From IMG/VR virus record IMGVR_UViG_2778261218_000003: a DNA stretch of 12,147 bases; one strand, written 5' to 3'. The stretch comes from a virus. Taxonomy: Duplodnaviria; Heunggongvirae; Uroviricota; Caudoviricetes. Every line of letters starts with the position of its first letter. The stretch's first letter is position 1. The position numbers and the translations under genes were made by a program. The notes beneath the pieces are model-generated. The model was given only the letters and a program-made list of their open reading frames with translations, had not been told where the DNA came from and did not search any database. Positions 4,845 through 12,080 of the stretch are shown piece after piece.

Positions 4845-4900
4845 TAACAAGCAAGACGAGCAAGTGGCTAATAATAAAAAATAACAAGGTGTCTGCATTT

Positions 4901-4927
4901 CCCCCTCATGATGAGGGGGCTTTTTTT
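4901..4927 (+). terminator. Rho-independent terminator ending the fimbrial operon, shared with convergent rcnB
   Basis: Stem CCCCCTC (4901-4907) / GAGGGGG (4913-4919), 5-nt loop, then CTTTTTTT (4920-4927). An A-rich tract at 4871-4885 on the other side and the rcnB stop codon inside the T-run suggest it also serves the minus-strand gene. Confidence 0.6.
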
Positions 4928-5482: not shown

Positions 5483-6307
5483 TTATCGCATTATGCCCAT
5501 GAAGCCATGTACGCCCATATACACACCAACTAAGCCAATCAACAGACTGGAAAAATAGGGGGCGCGTTTAGCGAGAGTGTTAAATCCGCTCCAGCGTTTT
5601 GCGACCTGCTGAACGCTGATTGCTGCGCCAACGCCTACGGTGATAAGCGTTAACGCCAGGCCAATGCTGAAACTGACGACCAGTGTTGCGCCCAGTGTCA
5701 GGGCTTTCAACTGAATGCATATCAACAGCACGGTAATTGCTGCCGGGCAGGGGATAAGGCCACCGGTTAAGCCAAATAACAAAATTTGCCAGTTGGTGAC
5801 CTCTCTACCATCAAAGCGTCGTTTAATGTCATTGGCATGGGCTCGTGCATGGGCATCCTGATACTCGCCATGTTCGTGATGGTGATGATGTCCATGGTCG
5901 TGGTGATCTTCGTGATCGTGGTGATGATGTTCATGATCATACTCGTGCATATTCTCCAGCCAGTTGCGTTCGCCGCGCCAGGTACGCCAGAACATCCAGA
6001 ACGCGGTGCCAATAATGATCACTGCGGAAATCAGCTGGAGCCACGGTTCTGCTGATTGAGCAGTAAAGCGCTTGCTGATCACCATCCCGCCAAAGGCAAT
6101 TAACCAGACCACTGCGGTATGCGAAATAGTTGCTGCCAGTCCGAGCATCACCGCTTGTTTAATGGTGCCTTTGATGGCGATGATAAACGCCGCCATCATC
6201 GTTTTTGAGTGCCCTGGTTCCAGGCCATGAAGCGCACCAAGTAAGATGGCGCTGGGGATGAAGAACCAGGCGTTTCCTTGCTGAAGAAGAGTTGTAAATT
6301 CGGTCAT
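5483..6307 (-). CDS. rcnA: Nickel/cobalt efflux permease RcnA (YohM)
   Basis: 274-aa membrane protein with several hydrophobic segments and a distinctive His/Asp/Glu-rich loop (HEYDHEHHHHDHEDHHDHGHHHHHEHGE). It is divergent from rcnR across an operator-bearing intergenic region. Confidence 0.9.
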   Translation of the reverse strand: MTEFTTLLQQGNAWFFIPSAILLGALHGLEPGHSKTMMAAFIIAIKGTIKQAVMLGLAATISHTAVVWLIAFGGMVISKRFTAQSAEPWLQLISAVIIIGTAFWMFWRTWRGERNWLENMHEYDHEHHHHDHEDHHDHGHHHHHEHGEYQDAHARAHANDIKRRFDGREVTNWQILLFGLTGGLIPCPAAITVLLICIQLKALTLGATLVVSFSIGLALTLITVGVGAAISVQQVAKRWSGFNTLAKRAPYFSSLLIGLVGVYMGVHGFMGIMR

Positions 6308-6379: not shown

Positions 6380-6427
6380 GATTAATAGTGCTATGATTTT
6401 TCATATTCTTGTTAACCAGGTGTTGCC

Positions 6428-6700
6428 ATGTCTCATACAATCCGTGATAAACAGAAACTGAAAGCGCGTGCCAGTAAGATTCAGGGCCAGGTCGTGGCGC
6501 TCAAGAAAATGCTCGACGAGCCGCACGAATGCGCTGCAGTTTTACAACAGATTGCTGCTATCCGTGGCGCGGTAAACGGTCTGATGCGGGAAGTGATTAA
6601 AGGTCATCTGACGGAACACATCGTTCACCAGGGGGATGAGCTAAAACGTGAAGAAGATCTGGATGTCGTTCTGAAGGTGCTGGATTCATATATCAAATAA
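6428..6700 (+). CDS. rcnR: Ni/Co-responsive transcriptional repressor RcnR (CsoR/RcnR family)
   Basis: 90-aa ORF ([38 protein letters not shown]...), the size and sequence of RcnR, divergent from rcnA. Confidence 0.9.
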
Positions 6701-6789
6701 TTTATTAACGCGATTGTAAAACTGCCGTTTTTCCTCGTTTACAACGCGTGCGCTGGACATTACCATCCTCCTCTGCGATTTATCATCGC

Positions 6790-6841
6790 AACCAAACGAC
6801 TCGGGGTGCCCTTCTGCGTGAAGGCTGAGAAATACCCGTAT
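6790..6841 (+). promoter_or_regulatory. Truncated TPP riboswitch (5' half of the thiM leader aptamer)
   Basis: AACCAAACGACTCGGGGTGCCCTTCTGCGTGAAGGCTGAGAAATACCCGTAT matches my recollection of the E. coli thiM TPP aptamer through P2, P3 and the CUGAGA junction. The expected continuation (CACCTGATCTGGATAATGCCAGCG...) is absent; from 6842 the sequence is unrelated and AT-rich. Confidence 0.7.
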
Positions 6842-6970
6842 TTTCTCATTTAGTGTTTTTTGTGGTTCTGGGTTGTTCGTGGCTGTTTGTGTATGTATTT
6901 GATATTTAAATAATTATTGTATTTTCTTGTTTGTTGTTGTTCGTTGCTGTTCGTAGGGCTTCAACGAAAT

Positions 6971-6994
6971 GTGTGGTCAGTTGTGTGGTCAGTT
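6971..6994 (+). repeat. Perfect tandem 12-bp direct repeat upstream of int (putative arm-type recombinase or IHF binding sites)
   Basis: GTGTGGTCAGTT at 6971-6982 and again at 6983-6994, with further GTTCGT-containing iterations at 6871-6882 and 6933-6957, all between the island junction and the int start. Confidence 0.5.
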
Positions 6995-7029
6995 TTTTGA
7001 GGCTGGAGGACTGAAAAGAGGATCTGATA

Positions 7030-8250
7030 GTGGGAAAAGCACTAAACAAACTGAGCGATTCGACGTTAAAAAAATTGGCGGCTGTCCAGGCAGAAAAAGA
7101 GCGTTTTTACTCCGACGGGGGCGGGCTGGAGATTAAACACTCAAAGGGCGGCAAATTAACCTGGTATTTCCGGTACCGAACGGGAGGCCGTGAGGTTGCC
7201 GCAGAGCGGTTAAAGCTGGGGGCTTACCCTGAATTGTCGCTGAAAGCTGCAAGGGAAAAACGCGCACAGTGCCGGGCATGGCTGGCTGAGGGTAAAAACC
7301 CCCGTTATGAGTTGTGCGCCACAGTACAGGAAGCGCTAAAACCCGTTACGGTGAAGGAGGCGATTAACTACTGGCTGGATGAATATGCGAAGGATAACCG
7401 CAAAGACTACATAAAGCTGGTGCAACGTATGGATAAGCACATCATTTGCCATATAGGGGCAATTCCTCTTGATAAATGCGATACAAGGCAGTGGATCGCA
7501 TGTTTTGACCGTGTACGAAAAAAAGCACCAGTAGCAGCGGGGCACGTCATGCAAACCTGCAAACAGGCGCTAAAGTTCTGCCGCAGGAGGCGCTACGCGT
7601 TCAGTAATGCCCTGGACGATTTGATCGTCAGCGATGTGGGTAAGAGAGCAGAAATTCGCGAGAGGGTGCACAGCAACAGCGAATTAAAGGAAATTCTACG
7701 TGCTATTGATAGTGATGTGTTCGCGCCTTACTACAGCGCGTTAATGCGCTTGCTGATTGTGTTCGGGTGCAGAACGGCAGAGGTCAGACTTTCAGAGATC
7801 AAAGAATGGGATCTGAAAGAAATGTTGTGGACAGTACCAAGAGAGCACAGCAAAACGAAGGTAACGATATTCAGGCCAATCCCCGATGGCATTTTGCCGT
7901 TCATTCAGAAGCTGGTGGATCAGAACCGGCATACAGGGTTATTGCTCGGAGAACTGAAAAAAGATACCACGGTAGCGCAATATGGGCGAAATGCGCATAA
8001 GCGGCTTAAGCAGGAACACTGGACGCTGCATGACTTCCGGCACACGTTTACAACGATGCTGAACGATTTAGGTGTCGATCCGCATATCGTTGAGCACATC
8101 ACAGCGCATCAGATGCCCGGTCAGCAAAAAACCTATAACCATTCACGCTATTTACAGGCGAAGCGGGACGCGTTGAATCTGTGGGTTGAGCGTCTCGATG
8201 TGCTGGCTGGAAATCATGAAAATATTATTATGCTAAAGGTGGCTAAATGA
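7030..8250 (+). CDS. int: Tyrosine site-specific integrase, P4/CP4-57 family
   Basis: 406-aa ORF with a GTG start and RBS AAGAGGA at 7014-7020. The N-terminus is P4-int-like (GGLEIKHSKGGKLTWYFRYRTGGREV...GAYPELSLKAAR). The C-terminal catalytic region carries HDFRHTF (H-x-x-R) and a downstream Tyr (KTYNHSRY). Confidence 0.9.
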   Translation: MGKALNKLSDSTLKKLAAVQAEKERFYSDGGGLEIKHSKGGKLTWYFRYRTGGREVAAERLKLGAYPELSLKAAREKRAQCRAWLAEGKNPRYELCATVQEALKPVTVKEAINYWLDEYAKDNRKDYIKLVQRMDKHIICHIGAIPLDKCDTRQWIACFDRVRKKAPVAAGHVMQTCKQALKFCRRRRYAFSNALDDLIVSDVGKRAEIRERVHSNSELKEILRAIDSDVFAPYYSALMRLLIVFGCRTAEVRLSEIKEWDLKEMLWTVPREHSKTKVTIFRPIPDGILPFIQKLVDQNRHTGLLLGELKKDTTVAQYGRNAHKRLKQEHWTLHDFRHTFTTMLNDLGVDPHIVEHITAHQMPGQQKTYNHSRYLQAKRDALNLWVERLDVLAGNHENIIMLKVAK

Positions 8251-9020
8251 AATTACCAAAAAGACTCTATTATCCGCTACCTGAAGCAGCAGAAAAGTTA
8301 AGCTGTGCAATAAAAGATCTTTATCATTACGCATATATAGGTGCTCTTGATATTTCTGTATATATACCAAAAATTGATGCTAAAAAATTCAATTTATCAT
8401 TATGTCATTTTATCAATGGTTGTAATGAGGAAGAATTAATAAAATATCCGTTCAATGATGAATCTGTTGTTTTTGGCAGTAATTTTACAGTTGGTTTAAC
8501 TGGTGACTCTGAATTTTTAGATAGTGCTATTATTGGTCCGGTAGGGAATTCTATAAAATGTTATTATGTTAGCAGTTTGGAAGGGTTTTATTATACTCCA
8601 GCAAATGTTTTTGCTGATGCTGAATTTAGCATGAGACAATATATAAAATGTTCTCATCTTACGAATAGGTATGGTGATGATAATCTCATGTATGTTTTTT
8701 GTAAGGGTGGTTATGAGTTTGATGTTAACTATTTGTGTGTGATGGCTAGTGATTTAGATAATATAAAAAATACGGGAGACTTCCCGAAGCTAACAGAAGA
8801 TAGCCCAAAAGCATCGTCAAAAAGGAATGAGGTTATTTACTCTTTAATTAAACTTATTCCAGAAATGGGTGATGTAGACCTGGACACGGAATCATTACCT
8901 AAAATAGCGGATTTAATTGATTCTATAGCTGCATCCAGAGGGATAGAATTTCCCAAAACACACTGGCAGACATGGCAAAAGTATTTGGGGCGTGAACCTC
9001 AACAAAAACGTAAAAAGTGA
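8247..9020 (+). CDS. Hypothetical protein, AT-rich orphan cargo gene, no family recognised
   Basis: 257-aa ORF whose ATG overlaps the int stop (ATGA), with RBS AAGGTGG at 8235-8241. It is strongly AT-rich compared with both flanks (by eye, not computed). I recognise no catalytic motif. The N-terminus (KRLYYPLPEAAEKLSCAIKDLYHY) may be a small helix-turn-helix-like segment. Confidence 0.6.
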   Translation: MKLPKRLYYPLPEAAEKLSCAIKDLYHYAYIGALDISVYIPKIDAKKFNLSLCHFINGCNEEELIKYPFNDESVVFGSNFTVGLTGDSEFLDSAIIGPVGNSIKCYYVSSLEGFYYTPANVFADAEFSMRQYIKCSHLTNRYGDDNLMYVFCKGGYEFDVNYLCVMASDLDNIKNTGDFPKLTEDSPKASSKRNEVIYSLIKLIPEMGDVDLDTESLPKIADLIDSIAASRGIEFPKTHWQTWQKYLGREPQQKRKK

Positions 9021-9109: not shown

Positions 9110-9334
9110 ATGAACCAATACAAACAATCCCAATTACCAGCAGATCGAGTAATCCGTGAGGATGAATGTCGAAACTTAACAGGTGTTAGCCGTACCACAC
9201 GCTACGAACTGGAGAAAAAAGGGAATTTCCCGTCACGCCGTAATCTGGGTGGTCGTTCAGTAGGTTGGCTGCTTTCCGAAGTTATGGAATGGGTGCAAAG
9301 CCGTGATCGCGTTAATTCAGGTAAGGCAGCGTAG
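9110..9334 (+). CDS. alpA: AlpA-family phage regulatory protein (small winged-HTH excisionase/activator)
   Basis: The track ORF (9017-9334) is trimmed to the ATG at 9110, giving 74 aa. The protein (MNQYKQSQLPADRVIREDECRNLTGVSRTTRYELEKKGNFPSRRNLGGRSVGWLLSEVMEWV) has the AlpA/Vis-type pattern and sits downstream of int as in CP4-57-like islands. Confidence 0.8.
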   Translation: MNQYKQSQLPADRVIREDECRNLTGVSRTTRYELEKKGNFPSRRNLGGRSVGWLLSEVMEWVQSRDRVNSGKAA

Positions 9335-9490: not shown

Positions 9491-10291
9491 ATGAAACAGC
9501 GAAAAACGCCCGTACAGGGGCAGGGCTTCGTTCGGCCTGAAAACCAGAATCTGCAAAATTTCGGCGAAATTATCCCGGTTATTTCCGGCATTATTGGCGG
9601 GTGTGAAACCAATATTGTTAGCGCCAGAGCGTTGCATAAGGCGTTAGGTGTAGGTCGCGTTTTCCGTTCGTGGATCAAGGGGCGCATTGAAGAATACGGC
9701 TTCACGGAAGGCGTGGATTATGAGGTTGTTGAATATTTGAGCCGACCCGATCCGGTGAGCGCAAAATCTCGCCAGCAAACAGCTCTTGAGTACATCATTA
9801 CCGTGAACATGGCGAAAGAACTGGCGATGGTCGAACGCACCGAACAGGGCCGCGCCGTTCGCCAGTACTTCATCAAATGCGAGGAGGAGCTACACAAGGT
9901 AGCGCCAGTGCGTTCCGCAGTGTTACGCCGGGAACTGAAAGCCCGTATCACAGTTGCCAGCTACTTTAAGCCAATGTGTGCCGCGCTGGAGGCGTACCGG
10001 GCTGAACTGGGTAAAAACACTCTACAGCACCACTACACCACGGAAGCCAATATGCTGGCGCGTATCGTGCTGGGCGGTATGACTGCCAGACAGTGGGCAC
10101 TGGCGAACGGCATTACAGGCGAACCACGCGACCACATGAGCACGTTGCAGCTTGAGCACCTTTCTTACCTTGAGCAGAGCAATATCACGCTGATTGAGTT
10201 AGGCCAGGGCTACCACCAGCGGAAAGCTGAATTAATTCGTCTTTCGCAGCGTTGGTTAGCCCGTCGCATGGAGGAAAACAGCCATGTGTAA
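9491..10291 (+). CDS. Phage antirepressor-like protein (AntA N-terminal region plus KilAC/ANT-type region)
   Basis: 266-aa ORF with RBS AGGAG at 9481-9485. The N-terminal segment (NIVSARALHKALGVGRVFRSWIKGRIEEYGFTEGVDY) resembles the AntA domain. The central segment (TALEYIITVNMAKELAMVERTEQGRAVRQYFIKCEEEL) resembles the KilAC domain. Both are from memory of those families. Confidence 0.7.
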   Translation: MKQRKTPVQGQGFVRPENQNLQNFGEIIPVISGIIGGCETNIVSARALHKALGVGRVFRSWIKGRIEEYGFTEGVDYEVVEYLSRPDPVSAKSRQQTALEYIITVNMAKELAMVERTEQGRAVRQYFIKCEEELHKVAPVRSAVLRRELKARITVASYFKPMCAALEAYRAELGKNTLQHHYTTEANMLARIVLGGMTARQWALANGITGEPRDHMSTLQLEHLSYLEQSNITLIELGQGYHQRKAELIRLSQRWLARRMEENSHV

Positions 10292-10726
10292 CGCTCTGAC
10301 CGTTACAAAAAGAGAAAGCGCCCCGTTGCCGGAGCGCCTTTGTGAACGAATAGCCTACTGCGCCATATTGCTTACTGTCTACGAGGCAGATTATAGCGTT
10401 GTGGTCGCACAGAGTGAAGGCGCTGATCACCGTTACTACAGCACACCAGAAATGCAGAATATTTTGCTGCAAAATGTCGTTGGTCACGCTGTCCGGAAAG
10501 CAAAAAATTTTGCTGGTGGCGCGACTGATGCGATTTTGTCAGGTAGCCAGGTGCTGATCAATCTGATGTCTGGTTTCGTTCTGGATAAAACAAAGGCGAC
10601 CGCAGAGGGTCGCCAGTGGGTATTACGGCAAATCAAACCTGAATGCATCGCCAACAATGCTGCATTTGTGGCTGGTGGGCAAATCTTTAGTGGAATTTTT
10701 TCCCTGTTGCCTGCACTGGGTAATGG
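10284..10726 (+). CDS. Hypothetical ORF coupled to the ant-like gene; 3' end undefined
   Basis: ATG at 10284 overlaps the ant stop (ATGTGTAA) and is preceded by GGAGG. The first ~150 codons look protein-like, but the frame has no stop until 12080 and runs antisense through three minus-strand genes. The true extent is unknown; it may be a truncated or fused gene remnant. The end coordinate is arbitrary. Confidence 0.3.
10583..10619 (+). repeat. Conserved hairpin element, copy 2
   Basis: ATAAAACAAAGGCGACC-GCAGAG-GGTCGCCAGTGG, same stem and flanks as copy 1, with loop substitutions only. Confidence 0.6.
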
Positions 10727-10909
10727 TTACTTGTATCGCGTATTCCTGCACAAAACAGGACTGCTTTTTTTGATGAAATCCTCAAGCAAAAAACACTCTG
10801 TTGATGCTCTTGGTAATTCTCTGGTGGAAGGATGGGGTTTTATCCCCCATTTTCGTTTACGTTCTTCCAGAAAGGAGGTGAGTATATCTAGTTTCTGTGC
10901 GTCCATCAT
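10727..10909 (-). CDS. Small hypothetical protein (60 aa), distal gene of the minus-strand operon
   Basis: ORF MMDAQKLDILTSFLEERKRKWGIKPHPSTRELPRASTECF... with a weak RBS (AAGAG). Its position in a same-strand array after the RHH gene supports it modestly. Confidence 0.3.
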   Translation of the reverse strand: MMDAQKLDILTSFLEERKRKWGIKPHPSTRELPRASTECFLLEDFIKKSSPVLCRNTRYK

Positions 10910-10966
10910 TTTTCTCTTGGATACTGCTTTGTGCCATGGATCCTCACACCACGGCGCTGATAGTGG

Positions 10967-11146
10967 TTATTTCTGCTCTTCAACATCACCATGTCGTGAT
11001 GTTTTCCAGGTATATAGCCCCATTTTTGTGCGCTTGTGCGTTTTAAGAAATTGCTCAAGGTGGAAGGTTTTAACCTTTCCCTGTTCGGTTTCTTGTGCAA
11101 TTTCTTTCGCCATTTGCTGGGCTAAAAAATCTTTTAATTTAGGCAT
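10967..11146 (-). CDS. Small hypothetical protein (59 aa), second gene of the minus-strand operon
   Basis: Below the ORF-track size cutoff; found by manual translation: MPKLKDFLAQQMAKEIAQETEQGKVKTFHLEQFLKTHKRTKMGLYTWKTSRHGDVEEQK. RBS AGGGGG lies 7 nt upstream and it has balanced, charged, helical composition. It starts 70 nt after the RHH gene stop. Confidence 0.45.
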   Translation of the reverse strand: MPKLKDFLAQQMAKEIAQETEQGKVKTFHLEQFLKTHKRTKMGLYTWKTSRHGDVEEQK

Positions 11147-11215
11147 GGTTCGCCCCCTGCTTACAGTCTGGCGCTCGAGTTCCTTAGGCTCTGGCGCGAA
11201 TGGTGATTATTCTGG

Positions 11216-11515
11216 CTACCCTTTGGCCTTGCGCCGCTGGAGTTCTTCACGAGCAACGGAAACAAGCTGCTCTATATTTTCGGCGAGTTCGACCCCTATT
11301 TTTTCCATTTGTTCCAGCGCATCGAGCGAAGAAACCAGGGGATTTTCTCCGCTTCCTTCTGCCTGGCGGCGGGCGATCTCACCGCGTACAGCCGTAACTA
11401 TAAAATTCGCTTTAGTTTCCCCTGGCTGTAGGGATGCCTCAATGCCACTCACTACTTCATGTGGAAATCTGGCATTCAGTTGCTGTGACTTATTGTTAAC
11501 AGAACTCGTGGACAT
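11216..11515 (-). CDS. Ribbon-helix-helix (Arc/MetJ/CopG-like) DNA-binding protein, possibly YlcI/YnfO-like
   Basis: The track ORF (11216-11692) is trimmed to the ATG at 11515, which has a strong RBS (GGAGGTG). The 99-aa protein (MSTSSVNNKSQQLNARFPHEVVSGIEASLQPGETKANFIVTAVRGEIARR...) has the beta-strand then helix pattern of RHH regulators at its N-terminus. It faces an operator-rich divergent region. Confidence 0.65.
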   Translation of the reverse strand: MSTSSVNNKSQQLNARFPHEVVSGIEASLQPGETKANFIVTAVRGEIARRQAEGSGENPLVSSLDALEQMEKIGVELAENIEQLVSVAREELQRRKAKG

Positions 11516-11558
11516 GTTTGCACCTCCGATTAATAACGGGATGCAGTGTAATACAAAA

Positions 11559-11614
11559 GTGAATACCAAAAAAGACTTGAAATGGTATTCACCAAAATGT
11601 AATCTGAATACCAC
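11559..11614 (+). promoter_or_regulatory. Operator-like repeats in the divergent control region
   Basis: Perfect 10-bp inverted repeat GTGAATACCA (11559-11568) / TGGTATTCAC (11583-11592) with a 14-bp spacer, plus a third half-site TGAATACCAC at 11605-11614. They lie between the RHH gene start (11515, minus) and the plus-strand gene at 11715. Confidence 0.5.
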
Positions 11615-11714
11615 AAGGGCTGATACATGCAATTCAGCAATTGAAACGACGAAGCCCCGCACTGTTGGAGCAGTAACGGGGCTTCTAACCAAACCGTTAA
11701 CAGGAGTAACGATT

Positions 11715-12080
11715 ATGGCTGGAACACAGCATACCCAAACTCACCCTAAATTTATATACACCTTCTTGGCGGTGCACCGTGATTGCATAGCTGACGGTAA
11801 AAACACTGTACACGTAGCCGCCGATACGCTGGTTGATGCCTGCGAGATGCTCAATGACATGGGCTATATCTCGGCAACATGGAAAGGGCGCGAAGAAAAC
11901 ACGCTGTTTATTCAGAAATGCGAGAACAATTTTATCTGGCGTTTTATCGCCCTGAGTACAGCACAACCGCGCGTGATTCACATCGAGGCCACCAGCGAAC
12001 AGGAAGCCCGCCAGCAATCTCCTGATGGCTGCGTGATGGTATTCGCTGCCCGTATTCGCCAGGAGGTGGAACATGTGTAA
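11715..12080 (+). CDS. Hypothetical protein (121 aa), first gene of the rightward operon
   Basis: ATG at 11715 with RBS AGGAG at 11702-11706 (MAGTQHTQTHPKFIYTFLAVHRDCIADGKNTVHVAAD...). It is in frame with, and forms the 3' part of, the 598-aa track ORF. I prefer it to the overlapping minus ORF 11697-12116, which is Cys/His-rich and low-complexity. Confidence 0.55.
   Translation: MAGTQHTQTHPKFIYTFLAVHRDCIADGKNTVHVAADTLVDACEMLNDMGYISATWKGREENTLFIQKCENNFIWRFIALSTAQPRVIHIEATSEQEARQQSPDGCVMVFAARIRQEVEHV

Follow-up and report, generated by a model that had tools for sequence, protein, structure and literature searches.

The window analysed here, a stretch of 12,147 nucleotides from IMG/VR virus record IMGVR_UViG_2778261218_000003 (Caudoviricetes), runs from Escherichia coli chromosomal genes into a phage-inducible chromosomal island (PICI) of the E. 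coli type. On the left, the gene order is yehD-yehC-yehB-yehA, rcnB (minus strand), rcnA (minus strand, 5483-6307) and rcnR (plus strand, 6428-6700); the last, the left-flanking chromosomal gene, is annotated as rcnR in matching genomes and carries the Pfam domain Trns_repr_metal in matching contigs. To its right, all on the plus strand, lie a candidate sigma-70 promoter of thiM (6738-6766), the 5' half of the aptamer of the thiM thiamine pyrophosphate (TPP) riboswitch (6790-6841), whose last 14 nucleotides are the left copy of the attachment core AGAAATACCCGTAT (6828-6841; thiM nucleotides A41-U54), the left arm of the island (6842-7029) and the integrase gene int (7030-8250). The integrase, of 406 amino acids, is a tyrosine recombinase of the P4/CP4-57-like type, with an N-terminal arm-binding domain (Arm-DNA-bind_3, PF13356, E=2e-18) and a catalytic C-terminal domain (Phage_integrase, PF00589, E=6e-17), the domain matches being near full length. 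It matches PHROG 1 (integrase), and its N-terminal domain matches the solved arm-binding domains of CP4-like integrases (PDB 3jtz and 3ju0). The motifs GCRTAE, HSKTK, HDFRH and SRY are present, the R-K-H-R-H/W-Y residues having been assigned by eye.

The rcnR-thiM intergenic region of the island-free strain E. coli K-12 MG1655 served as the reference for the left junction (attL). In the alignment, the window matches K-12 from rcnR to ...GGCTGAGAAATACCCGTAT, with position 6841 as the last matching base, and the 52 nt from 6790 to 6841 are 100% identical to the start of the K-12 thiM leader. Past ...CCCGTAT, MG1655 has CACCTGATCTGG and the window has TTTCTCATTTAG; read further beyond 6841, K-12 continues as CACCTGATCTGGATAATGCC... 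and the window as TTTCTCATTTAGTG... In thiM numbering, obtained by subtracting 6787 from the window position and checked against Lang et al. (2007, PMC2018614), nucleotides 3-54 are kept, the break separating U54 from C55. The elements retained at attL are the P1 5' strand, P2, P3, J3-2 (U39-GAGAA), the P2 3' strand and J2-4. An Rfam scan of the whole window did not find the TPP family (RF00059, gathering score 54.3 bits): internal half-aptamers are invisible to cmscan, and the half was detected only once the stretch was cut at the break, when positions 6760-6841 scanned alone gave a 3'-truncated RF00059 match to model positions 1-58 (21.2 bits, E=0.013). The MG1655 region, taken as a control, yields a complete TPP aptamer (71.2 bits, E=2e-14). 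Chance does not account for a 52-nt leader identity that stops abruptly at a direct repeat. The initial annotation had placed the 5' half of the riboswitch at 6791-6841, which the identity with MG1655 and the truncated match bear out, except that the half starts at 6790 and includes the P1 5' strand, missing from its list of elements. It had also described a break at GTAT followed by AT-rich, repeat-laden DNA leading into a tyrosine integrase gene, and this is what we found: the GC content is lower 3' of the break (0.395-0.445), and the left arm contains a 52-nt repeat (6839-6890 and 6903-6954) and a perfect tandem TGTGTGGTCAGT (6970-6993).

The window ends inside the island, and the right junction (attR) was read from draft E. 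coli contigs that are 99.5% identical to it over its whole length; the complete element is present in three of them (L018, L019 and L021), reached through a 99-amino-acid minus-strand gene of the island. The attL and left arm of the window are identical base for base to those of the matching contigs. The core recurs 13,739 bp downstream of its attL copy, and to the right of this second copy the sequence continues as CACCTGATCTGG..., the 3' half of the aptamer, followed by the expression platform, thiM and thiD. The junction pattern at the attR of islands at the thiM site is TAAGAAATACCCGTAT directly followed by CACCTGAT, and in related carriers the chromosome resumes its identity with K-12 from the core onward. 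The same arrangement was found in four complete genomes (UMNF18, Ecol_224, O157 strain 10671 and SM107), seven carrier loci have the core directly repeated at the two ends of the island, and thiM and thiD are intact (annotated or called) in all carriers examined. From the left end the initial annotation had deduced an island inserted within the aptamer, with the pyrimidine-sensing arm split from the pyrophosphate-sensing arm and the expression platform, and it had proposed looking at the far end for the 3' half and a short direct repeat. All of this is borne out: the MG1655 alignment diverges after the core, no intact aptamer is contiguous with the 5' half, the 3' half lies at attR, 13,739 bp on, and the repeat is the 14-bp core. 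We consider it very probable that positions 6790-7029 are the attL of a 13.7-kb PICI inserted through site-specific recombination by its P4/CP4-57-like integrase. The assignment to the PICIs comes from int lying at one end of mostly unidirectional genes, an AlpA gene near int, the length of 13,739 bp from core to core, within the ~8-15 kb expected of such islands, and an attachment site that is already catalogued.

In the reconstructed phage-type site (attP), the block of identity with the bacterial site (attB) is 14 bp long, and the sequence around the core, AAGAAATAcccgTATTTTCT, is an imperfect inverted repeat, which would fit the expectation for core-type recombinase sites. Beside the core lie conserved arms of ~190 bp on the left and ~215 bp on the right, common to islands of five sizes. 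Both arms contain a ~75-bp direct repeat that holds GTTGTTCGT motifs and the tandem TGTGTGGTCAGT, and these repeats are probably the arm-type sites bound by the N-terminal domain of the integrase. The left arm is conserved across three island types.

Both the element type and its attachment core have been published: Table S1 of Fillol-Salom et al. (2018, ISME J, PMC6092414) lists EcCI224, a 10.6-kb PICI of strain Ecol_224 (10,609 bp core to core), with the core AGAAATACCCGTAT at 'frmR-thiM', rcnR being the frmR homologue of this site name. The window thus contains a known kind of satellite at a known site, and the novelty implied by the initial annotation was overstated. The published site corresponds to nucleotides A41-U54 of the thiM TPP aptamer and includes residues of the pyrimidine pocket. 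The terms riboswitch, thiamin, leader, tRNA and intergenic are all absent from the main text of that article, and the location of the site in a riboswitch, its predicted consequence for thiMD and the use of the core by a clade of integrases in two genera are unreported additions. No paper describing integration into a riboswitch was found in the literature searched, although absence there is not proof of absence. The target had further been contrasted with the tRNA and tmRNA genes usually hit by P4-family integrases. It is a structured-RNA target, as claimed, but the contrast is weaker than stated because the E. coli PICI attachment locations in Table S1 are all protein-coding or intergenic, none being a tRNA or tmRNA gene. 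Moreover, the integrase recognises duplex DNA, not RNA structure.

The published mechanism of the riboswitch allows the effect of the insertion to be predicted. Without ligand, the anti-anti-Shine-Dalgarno sequence (83-86) pairs with the anti-Shine-Dalgarno sequence (108-111) and the Shine-Dalgarno sequence (126-129) is free, while with TPP the closure of P1 sequesters the anti-anti-Shine-Dalgarno sequence and the Shine-Dalgarno sequence is masked; G40 hydrogen-bonds the pyrimidine ring of TPP (Lang et al. 2007, PMC2018614). In the carriers, the pyrimidine-sensing P2/P3/J3-2 arm faces int at attL, and the pyrophosphate-sensing P4/P5 arm lies with the expression platform and thiM-thiD 13.7 kb away. 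The island sequence ahead of the attR core, ...ATCAACTGATAACAAAAATYAGTA, lacks G18/G19 as well as any 5' strand for P1 or P2, and has an A in place of G40; as far as the sequence goes there is therefore no complete thiM aptamer in any carrier examined. With its 5' strand 13.7 kb away, P1 would be unable to close, the anti-anti-Shine-Dalgarno sequence would remain on the anti-Shine-Dalgarno sequence, and the Shine-Dalgarno sequence would stay exposed, so that thiM translation would no longer be repressible by TPP. Folding with ViennaRNA agrees with this scheme, the 83-86:108-111 helix (GAAG:CUUC) having P>=0.96 in every attR leader tested vs 0.91 in the native leader without ligand. The riboswitch would be restored if the island excised precisely.

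Since the riboswitch is in the 5' untranslated region, the thiM promoter lies upstream of the break and stays at attL. The candidate found there by the consensus scan, TTTACA-17-TACCAT (6738-6766), which now faces int, was also returned by a relaxed scan of MG1655, together with an overlapping alternative, TTACCA-15-TATCAT. No terminator-like hairpin was found between this candidate and int, and the thiM promoter may thus read into int. By their position, thiM and thiD are cut off in the carriers from both their native promoter and the TPP-sensing half of the riboswitch, and their transcription would come from read-through or from a weak island-borne promoter.

Among 5,426 complete E. coli genomes, the rcnR-int junction was present in 72 and the junction between the right arm and thiM in 76, the carriers coming from hosts that include pigs, humans, poultry, cattle, deer and wild carnivores. 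Islands of five sizes (10.6, 13.7, 15.5, 15.9 and 16.1 kb) occupy the thiM site with one int/arm module. In the protein database the window integrase groups closely with E. coli sequences, in a cluster of 588 members. The nearest relatives outside this cluster share 68-76% identity with it, and all four for which a source is named come from Salmonella. Each of the five related integrases that were looked up occupies the syntenic place (yeh fimbrial genes - rcnB - int) and follows ...GACGACTCGGGGTGCCCTTCTTTGTGAAGGCTGAGAAATACCCGTAT continued by T(T/A)TCTAA. This Salmonella evidence consists of int-side junctions from five integrase clusters, with the aptamer half confirmed by direct sequence comparison, as internal halves escape cmscan. 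The host DNA of E. coli and Salmonella can be aligned only from the P1 strand ACGACTCGGGG onward, and the aptamer half is identical at 44 of 46 nt, both differences falling in the P3 loop. A tandem arm repeat, GTG[T/A/C]GGTCAGT, ~170-200 bp past the core, varies with the integrase lineage (GTGTGG, GTGAGG or GTGCGG in loci L030-L035, one of which has three copies), suggesting that the arm sites evolve together with the integrase N-terminal domain around a fixed core. More distant E. coli relatives of the integrase, at 67% identity, use other catalogued PICI sites, such as cspD-clpS and lysR-smrA. An integrase search of a one-genome-per-species collection returned no related locus; exact matches there to the attR pattern, in a Bacteroidales and a Bacilli metagenome-assembled genome, were discarded as chance matches, the 3' half of the riboswitch following neither.

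Two carriers have unusual surroundings. In O157 strain 10671, rcnR and the aptamer are separated by an additional ~2.3 kb (locus L004, 14678-16965) that holds a gene for a small outer-membrane protein, a hypothetical gene and a helix-turn-helix-like fragment and that replaces the usual thiM promoter region up to CAACCAAACG; thiM in this lineage must thus use another promoter even without the island. In strain A34 (NZ_CP028741.1), attL and int are near 3.16 Mb and attR and thiM at 1.674 Mb (locus L028, 9001-9311), ~1.5 Mb apart, and the island remnant beside thiM is degraded and accompanied by waaB/waaO genes and an IS1 fragment. This state of the locus points to a large rearrangement, which may have taken place between related islands.

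Taken together, these data lead us to propose, tentatively and at somewhat less than even confidence, that a clade of PICI integrases, 68-99% identical and present in Escherichia and Salmonella, is specialised on the aptamer core as a cross-genus landing pad, and that integration rewires both partners, directing the thiM promoter and the 5' half into int and leaving thiMD TPP-blind, either constitutively translatable or nearly silent. If true, ~1.3% of E. coli carry a natural, excision-reversible polymorphism in the regulation of thiamine salvage. The carriers also offer natural riboswitch-knockout strains, with which the importance of TPP control of thiMD in wild populations could be gauged. 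That diverged Salmonella integrases hit the same 14 bp, with unrelated host DNA upstream, illustrates why conserved structured-RNA sequences make durable attachment sites.

Several points weigh against the main reading, that of a PICI inserted at this site with loss of TPP control of thiMD. The window lacks its own attR, TPP-blind translation of thiM is a prediction from sequence, thermodynamic folding and the published mechanism, and further observations favour one or another of three alternatives. The most serious of these is that integration silences thiMD, the promoter being lost and none gained, so that carriers would need exogenous thiamine, as ThiD is required for de novo synthesis. Three island types showed no consensus sigma-70 promoter within 0.6-1.2 kb of their right ends, the last cargo gene of the window-type island is divergent from thiM, and in both UMNF18 and EcCI224 there are terminator-like hairpins downstream of the final island gene. 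With no convincing promoter, thiMD could be nearly silent rather than constitutive. However, many real promoters are missed by consensus scans, and under relaxed criteria every right arm proved to share a weak motif resembling an extended -10 element (TGtTATTGT). Reading towards thiM in the window-type island, the closest promoter-like site lies 1.65 kb upstream, and no terminator-like hairpin was seen between the two. Both thiM and thiD are kept intact in every carrier examined, although a recent insertion could also explain this. We therefore regard silencing as unlikely, while giving it appreciable weight.

A rebuilt leader is much less probable. According to this alternative, which takes up a proviso of the initial annotation, the right end of the island would restore a TPP-responsive leader and thereby preserve thiMD regulation, the hairpin CUGAUaacaaaaAUYAG acting as P3 and UAAGAA as J3-2. 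The full-length Rfam TPP model does still align over attR, with the short hairpin and UAAGA in place of P3 and CUGAGA; the hairpin adjoins the core exactly at the end of P3, and its three variants retain pairing through G-U wobbles. Some residual ligand response at attR may on this account be conceivable. Against it, the RF00059 scores at attR, 31.7 bits in UMNF18 and 36.2 bits in the window-type island, fall well below both the gathering score and that of MG1655, and derive mostly from the intact P4/P5 half; the two islands are aligned differently, with P1/P2 pairs flagged as non-canonical. Conservation in the attP arm may have an ordinary explanation in TATCAACTGATAA, a candidate site for integration host factor, which differs by one mismatch from the consensus, WATCAANNNNTTR. 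In view of the sub-threshold scores, the missing P1/P2 5' strands and the G40 to A change, we rejected the P3-mimic hairpin as a functional rebuild, and consider a restored leader very improbable. Finally, it is hardly credible that the junction arose from a single rearrangement or is a fossil, instead of having been made by a dedicated, still active site-specific system. In favour of this view, no contiguous attP was found in IMG/VR (exact 24-mer), the 674-nt reconstructed attP had no match in deposited phage records or E. coli assemblies, so that excision and circularisation are inferred rather than observed, and the A34 island is degraded. Against it, the 14-bp repeat marks precise, identical junctions in 72-76 genomes of varied host origin, a single int/arm module accompanies five island bodies, the integrase is intact with its catalytic motifs, five diverged integrase lineages use the same core in Salmonella, and the same PICI backbone is found at other sites with other integrases.

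The remainder of the window is island DNA. An open reading frame (ORF) of 257 amino acids (8247-9020, plus strand; GC 0.27-0.37) overlaps the stop codon of int and is a called gene in matching contigs. It had no match in Pfam, PHROG or PADLOC and may be an unrecognised accessory or defence gene; sister islands hold other alleles at its position, for example DUF6387 in EcCI224. It is followed, on the plus strand, by a 74-amino-acid regulator or excisionase of the AlpA family (9110-9334; Pfam Phage_AlpA, E=1e-16; PHROG excisionase and transcriptional regulator) and an AntA/anti-repressor-like gene (9491-10291; Pfam AntA, PHROG anti-repressor Ant). On the minus strand, a small gene (10967-11146) is called in identical contigs, and the 99-amino-acid gene (11216-11515), a called gene located by exact look-up, occupies the position of the YlcI/YnfO family in related islands. 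A called gene for a 121-amino-acid Icd-like protein with PHROG matches (11715-12080, plus strand) then begins the rightward PICI operon. A 598-amino-acid ORF listed at 10284-12080 proved to be an artefact of mechanical listing, its PHROG matches being confined to residues 527-598 and three real genes being called there instead. Beyond the window, the matching contigs continue with small ORFs, DUF4222, a 470-amino-acid AAA_25 protein, ProQ, PerC, four unannotated small ORFs and, on the opposite strand, a gene with a CoiA-nuclease domain (L018, 1406-2452), for which PADLOC gave no match. Thus, int is followed by mostly plus-strand genes, with two small genes and the last cargo gene on the minus strand. 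DUF4222 and the AAA_25 protein sit where sister islands have D5_N/DUF927 primases. Among the called genes of L018, several of which are small ORFs without annotation, no lysis or tail Pfam family was found, and the matching contigs contain no capsid/terminase module belonging to the island of the window.

The same PICI backbone is present at other chromosomal sites with other integrases and other right-end cargo, indicating that int/att modules are exchangeable. Across loci L014-L027 this cargo varies by site: the CoiA-nuclease domain at thiM, and elsewhere DUF4747 with a 199-amino-acid gene, SEFIR/TIR, SocA_Panacea, DUF3800 or a methyltransferase with GmrSD. The position looks like a variable defence-gene slot. 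In the carriers, NCBI annotation lacks the 'riboswitch' feature present in its records of island-free genomes and draws an ~89-amino-acid hypothetical protein on the opposite strand across attR (L001, 36171-36440; L005, 32678-32947), so that annotation pipelines both lose the riboswitch and add a spurious ORF. Two weak Rfam matches in the chromosomal part of the window (5872-5941 and 4882-4927) are chance matches, 'mir-598' falling on GTGATGATG repeats inside rcnA and 'Hrs1' on a GC-rich hairpin with an A-run between yehA and rcnB that resembles an intrinsic terminator.

Among known systems, the closest is EcCI224, which has the identical 14-bp core at 'frmR-thiM' and an integrase region 97.7% identical to that of the window over 6400-7300. 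Like EcCI224 and other E. coli PICIs, the island follows the order int - AlpA - Icd-like - DUF4222 - putative primase/replication - ProQ/PerC, with rightward genes and a length within 10-15 kb; it differs from EcCI224 in its size (13.7 vs 10.6 kb) and in having AntA, the putative AAA_25 replication protein and the CoiA-nuclease-domain cargo. The capsid-forming PICIs (cf-PICIs) are likewise represented at the thiM site by islands of 15.5-16.1 kb with the same int/arm module. Those of UMNF18, 10671 and SM107 contain capsid, protease, portal, connector, HNH, TerS and TerL genes, consistent with the four attB sites reported to be common to cf-PICIs and classical PICIs (preprint, 10.1101/2022.09.08.507074), whereas the matching contigs of the window island hold no such module.

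The island can also be compared with elements in which integration reversibly disrupts a gene, as in active lysogeny and regulated gene integrity (comK, sigK, spsM). In both cases the element lies within a functional unit that precise excision would restore; unlike in comK, sigK and spsM, the interrupted unit is a regulatory RNA and not a coding sequence, and excision linked to host physiology is not indicated.

P4/CP4-57-type integrases are cited as targeting tRNA and tmRNA genes (Williams 2002, as reported in PMC12540744). The window integrase resembles them in its Arm-DNA-bind_3 and catalytic domains, its short target in a structured-RNA element and the location of int beside one junction. 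Elements that target tRNA genes usually bring a copy of the displaced gene end, thereby restoring the gene. In contrast, the window island hits a cis-regulatory aptamer, duplicates only the 14-bp core and leaves the RNA broken. Non-coding RNAs other than tRNA and tmRNA are used by prophages: a 2025 paper on the ffs site counts protein genes, tRNA/tmRNA, csRNA and intergenic regions among known attachment targets, and describes the integration of prophage phiEf11 in the ffs 4.5S RNA gene (PMC12540744), a pneumococcal prophage in a csRNA being cited in the same article. As in these prophages, the attB of the window island is a block of identity that lies within a non-coding RNA element and serves a site-specific integrase. 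Their targets are genes for trans-acting RNAs, however, whereas that of the window island is a riboswitch in an mRNA leader, so that the operon also loses its promoter.

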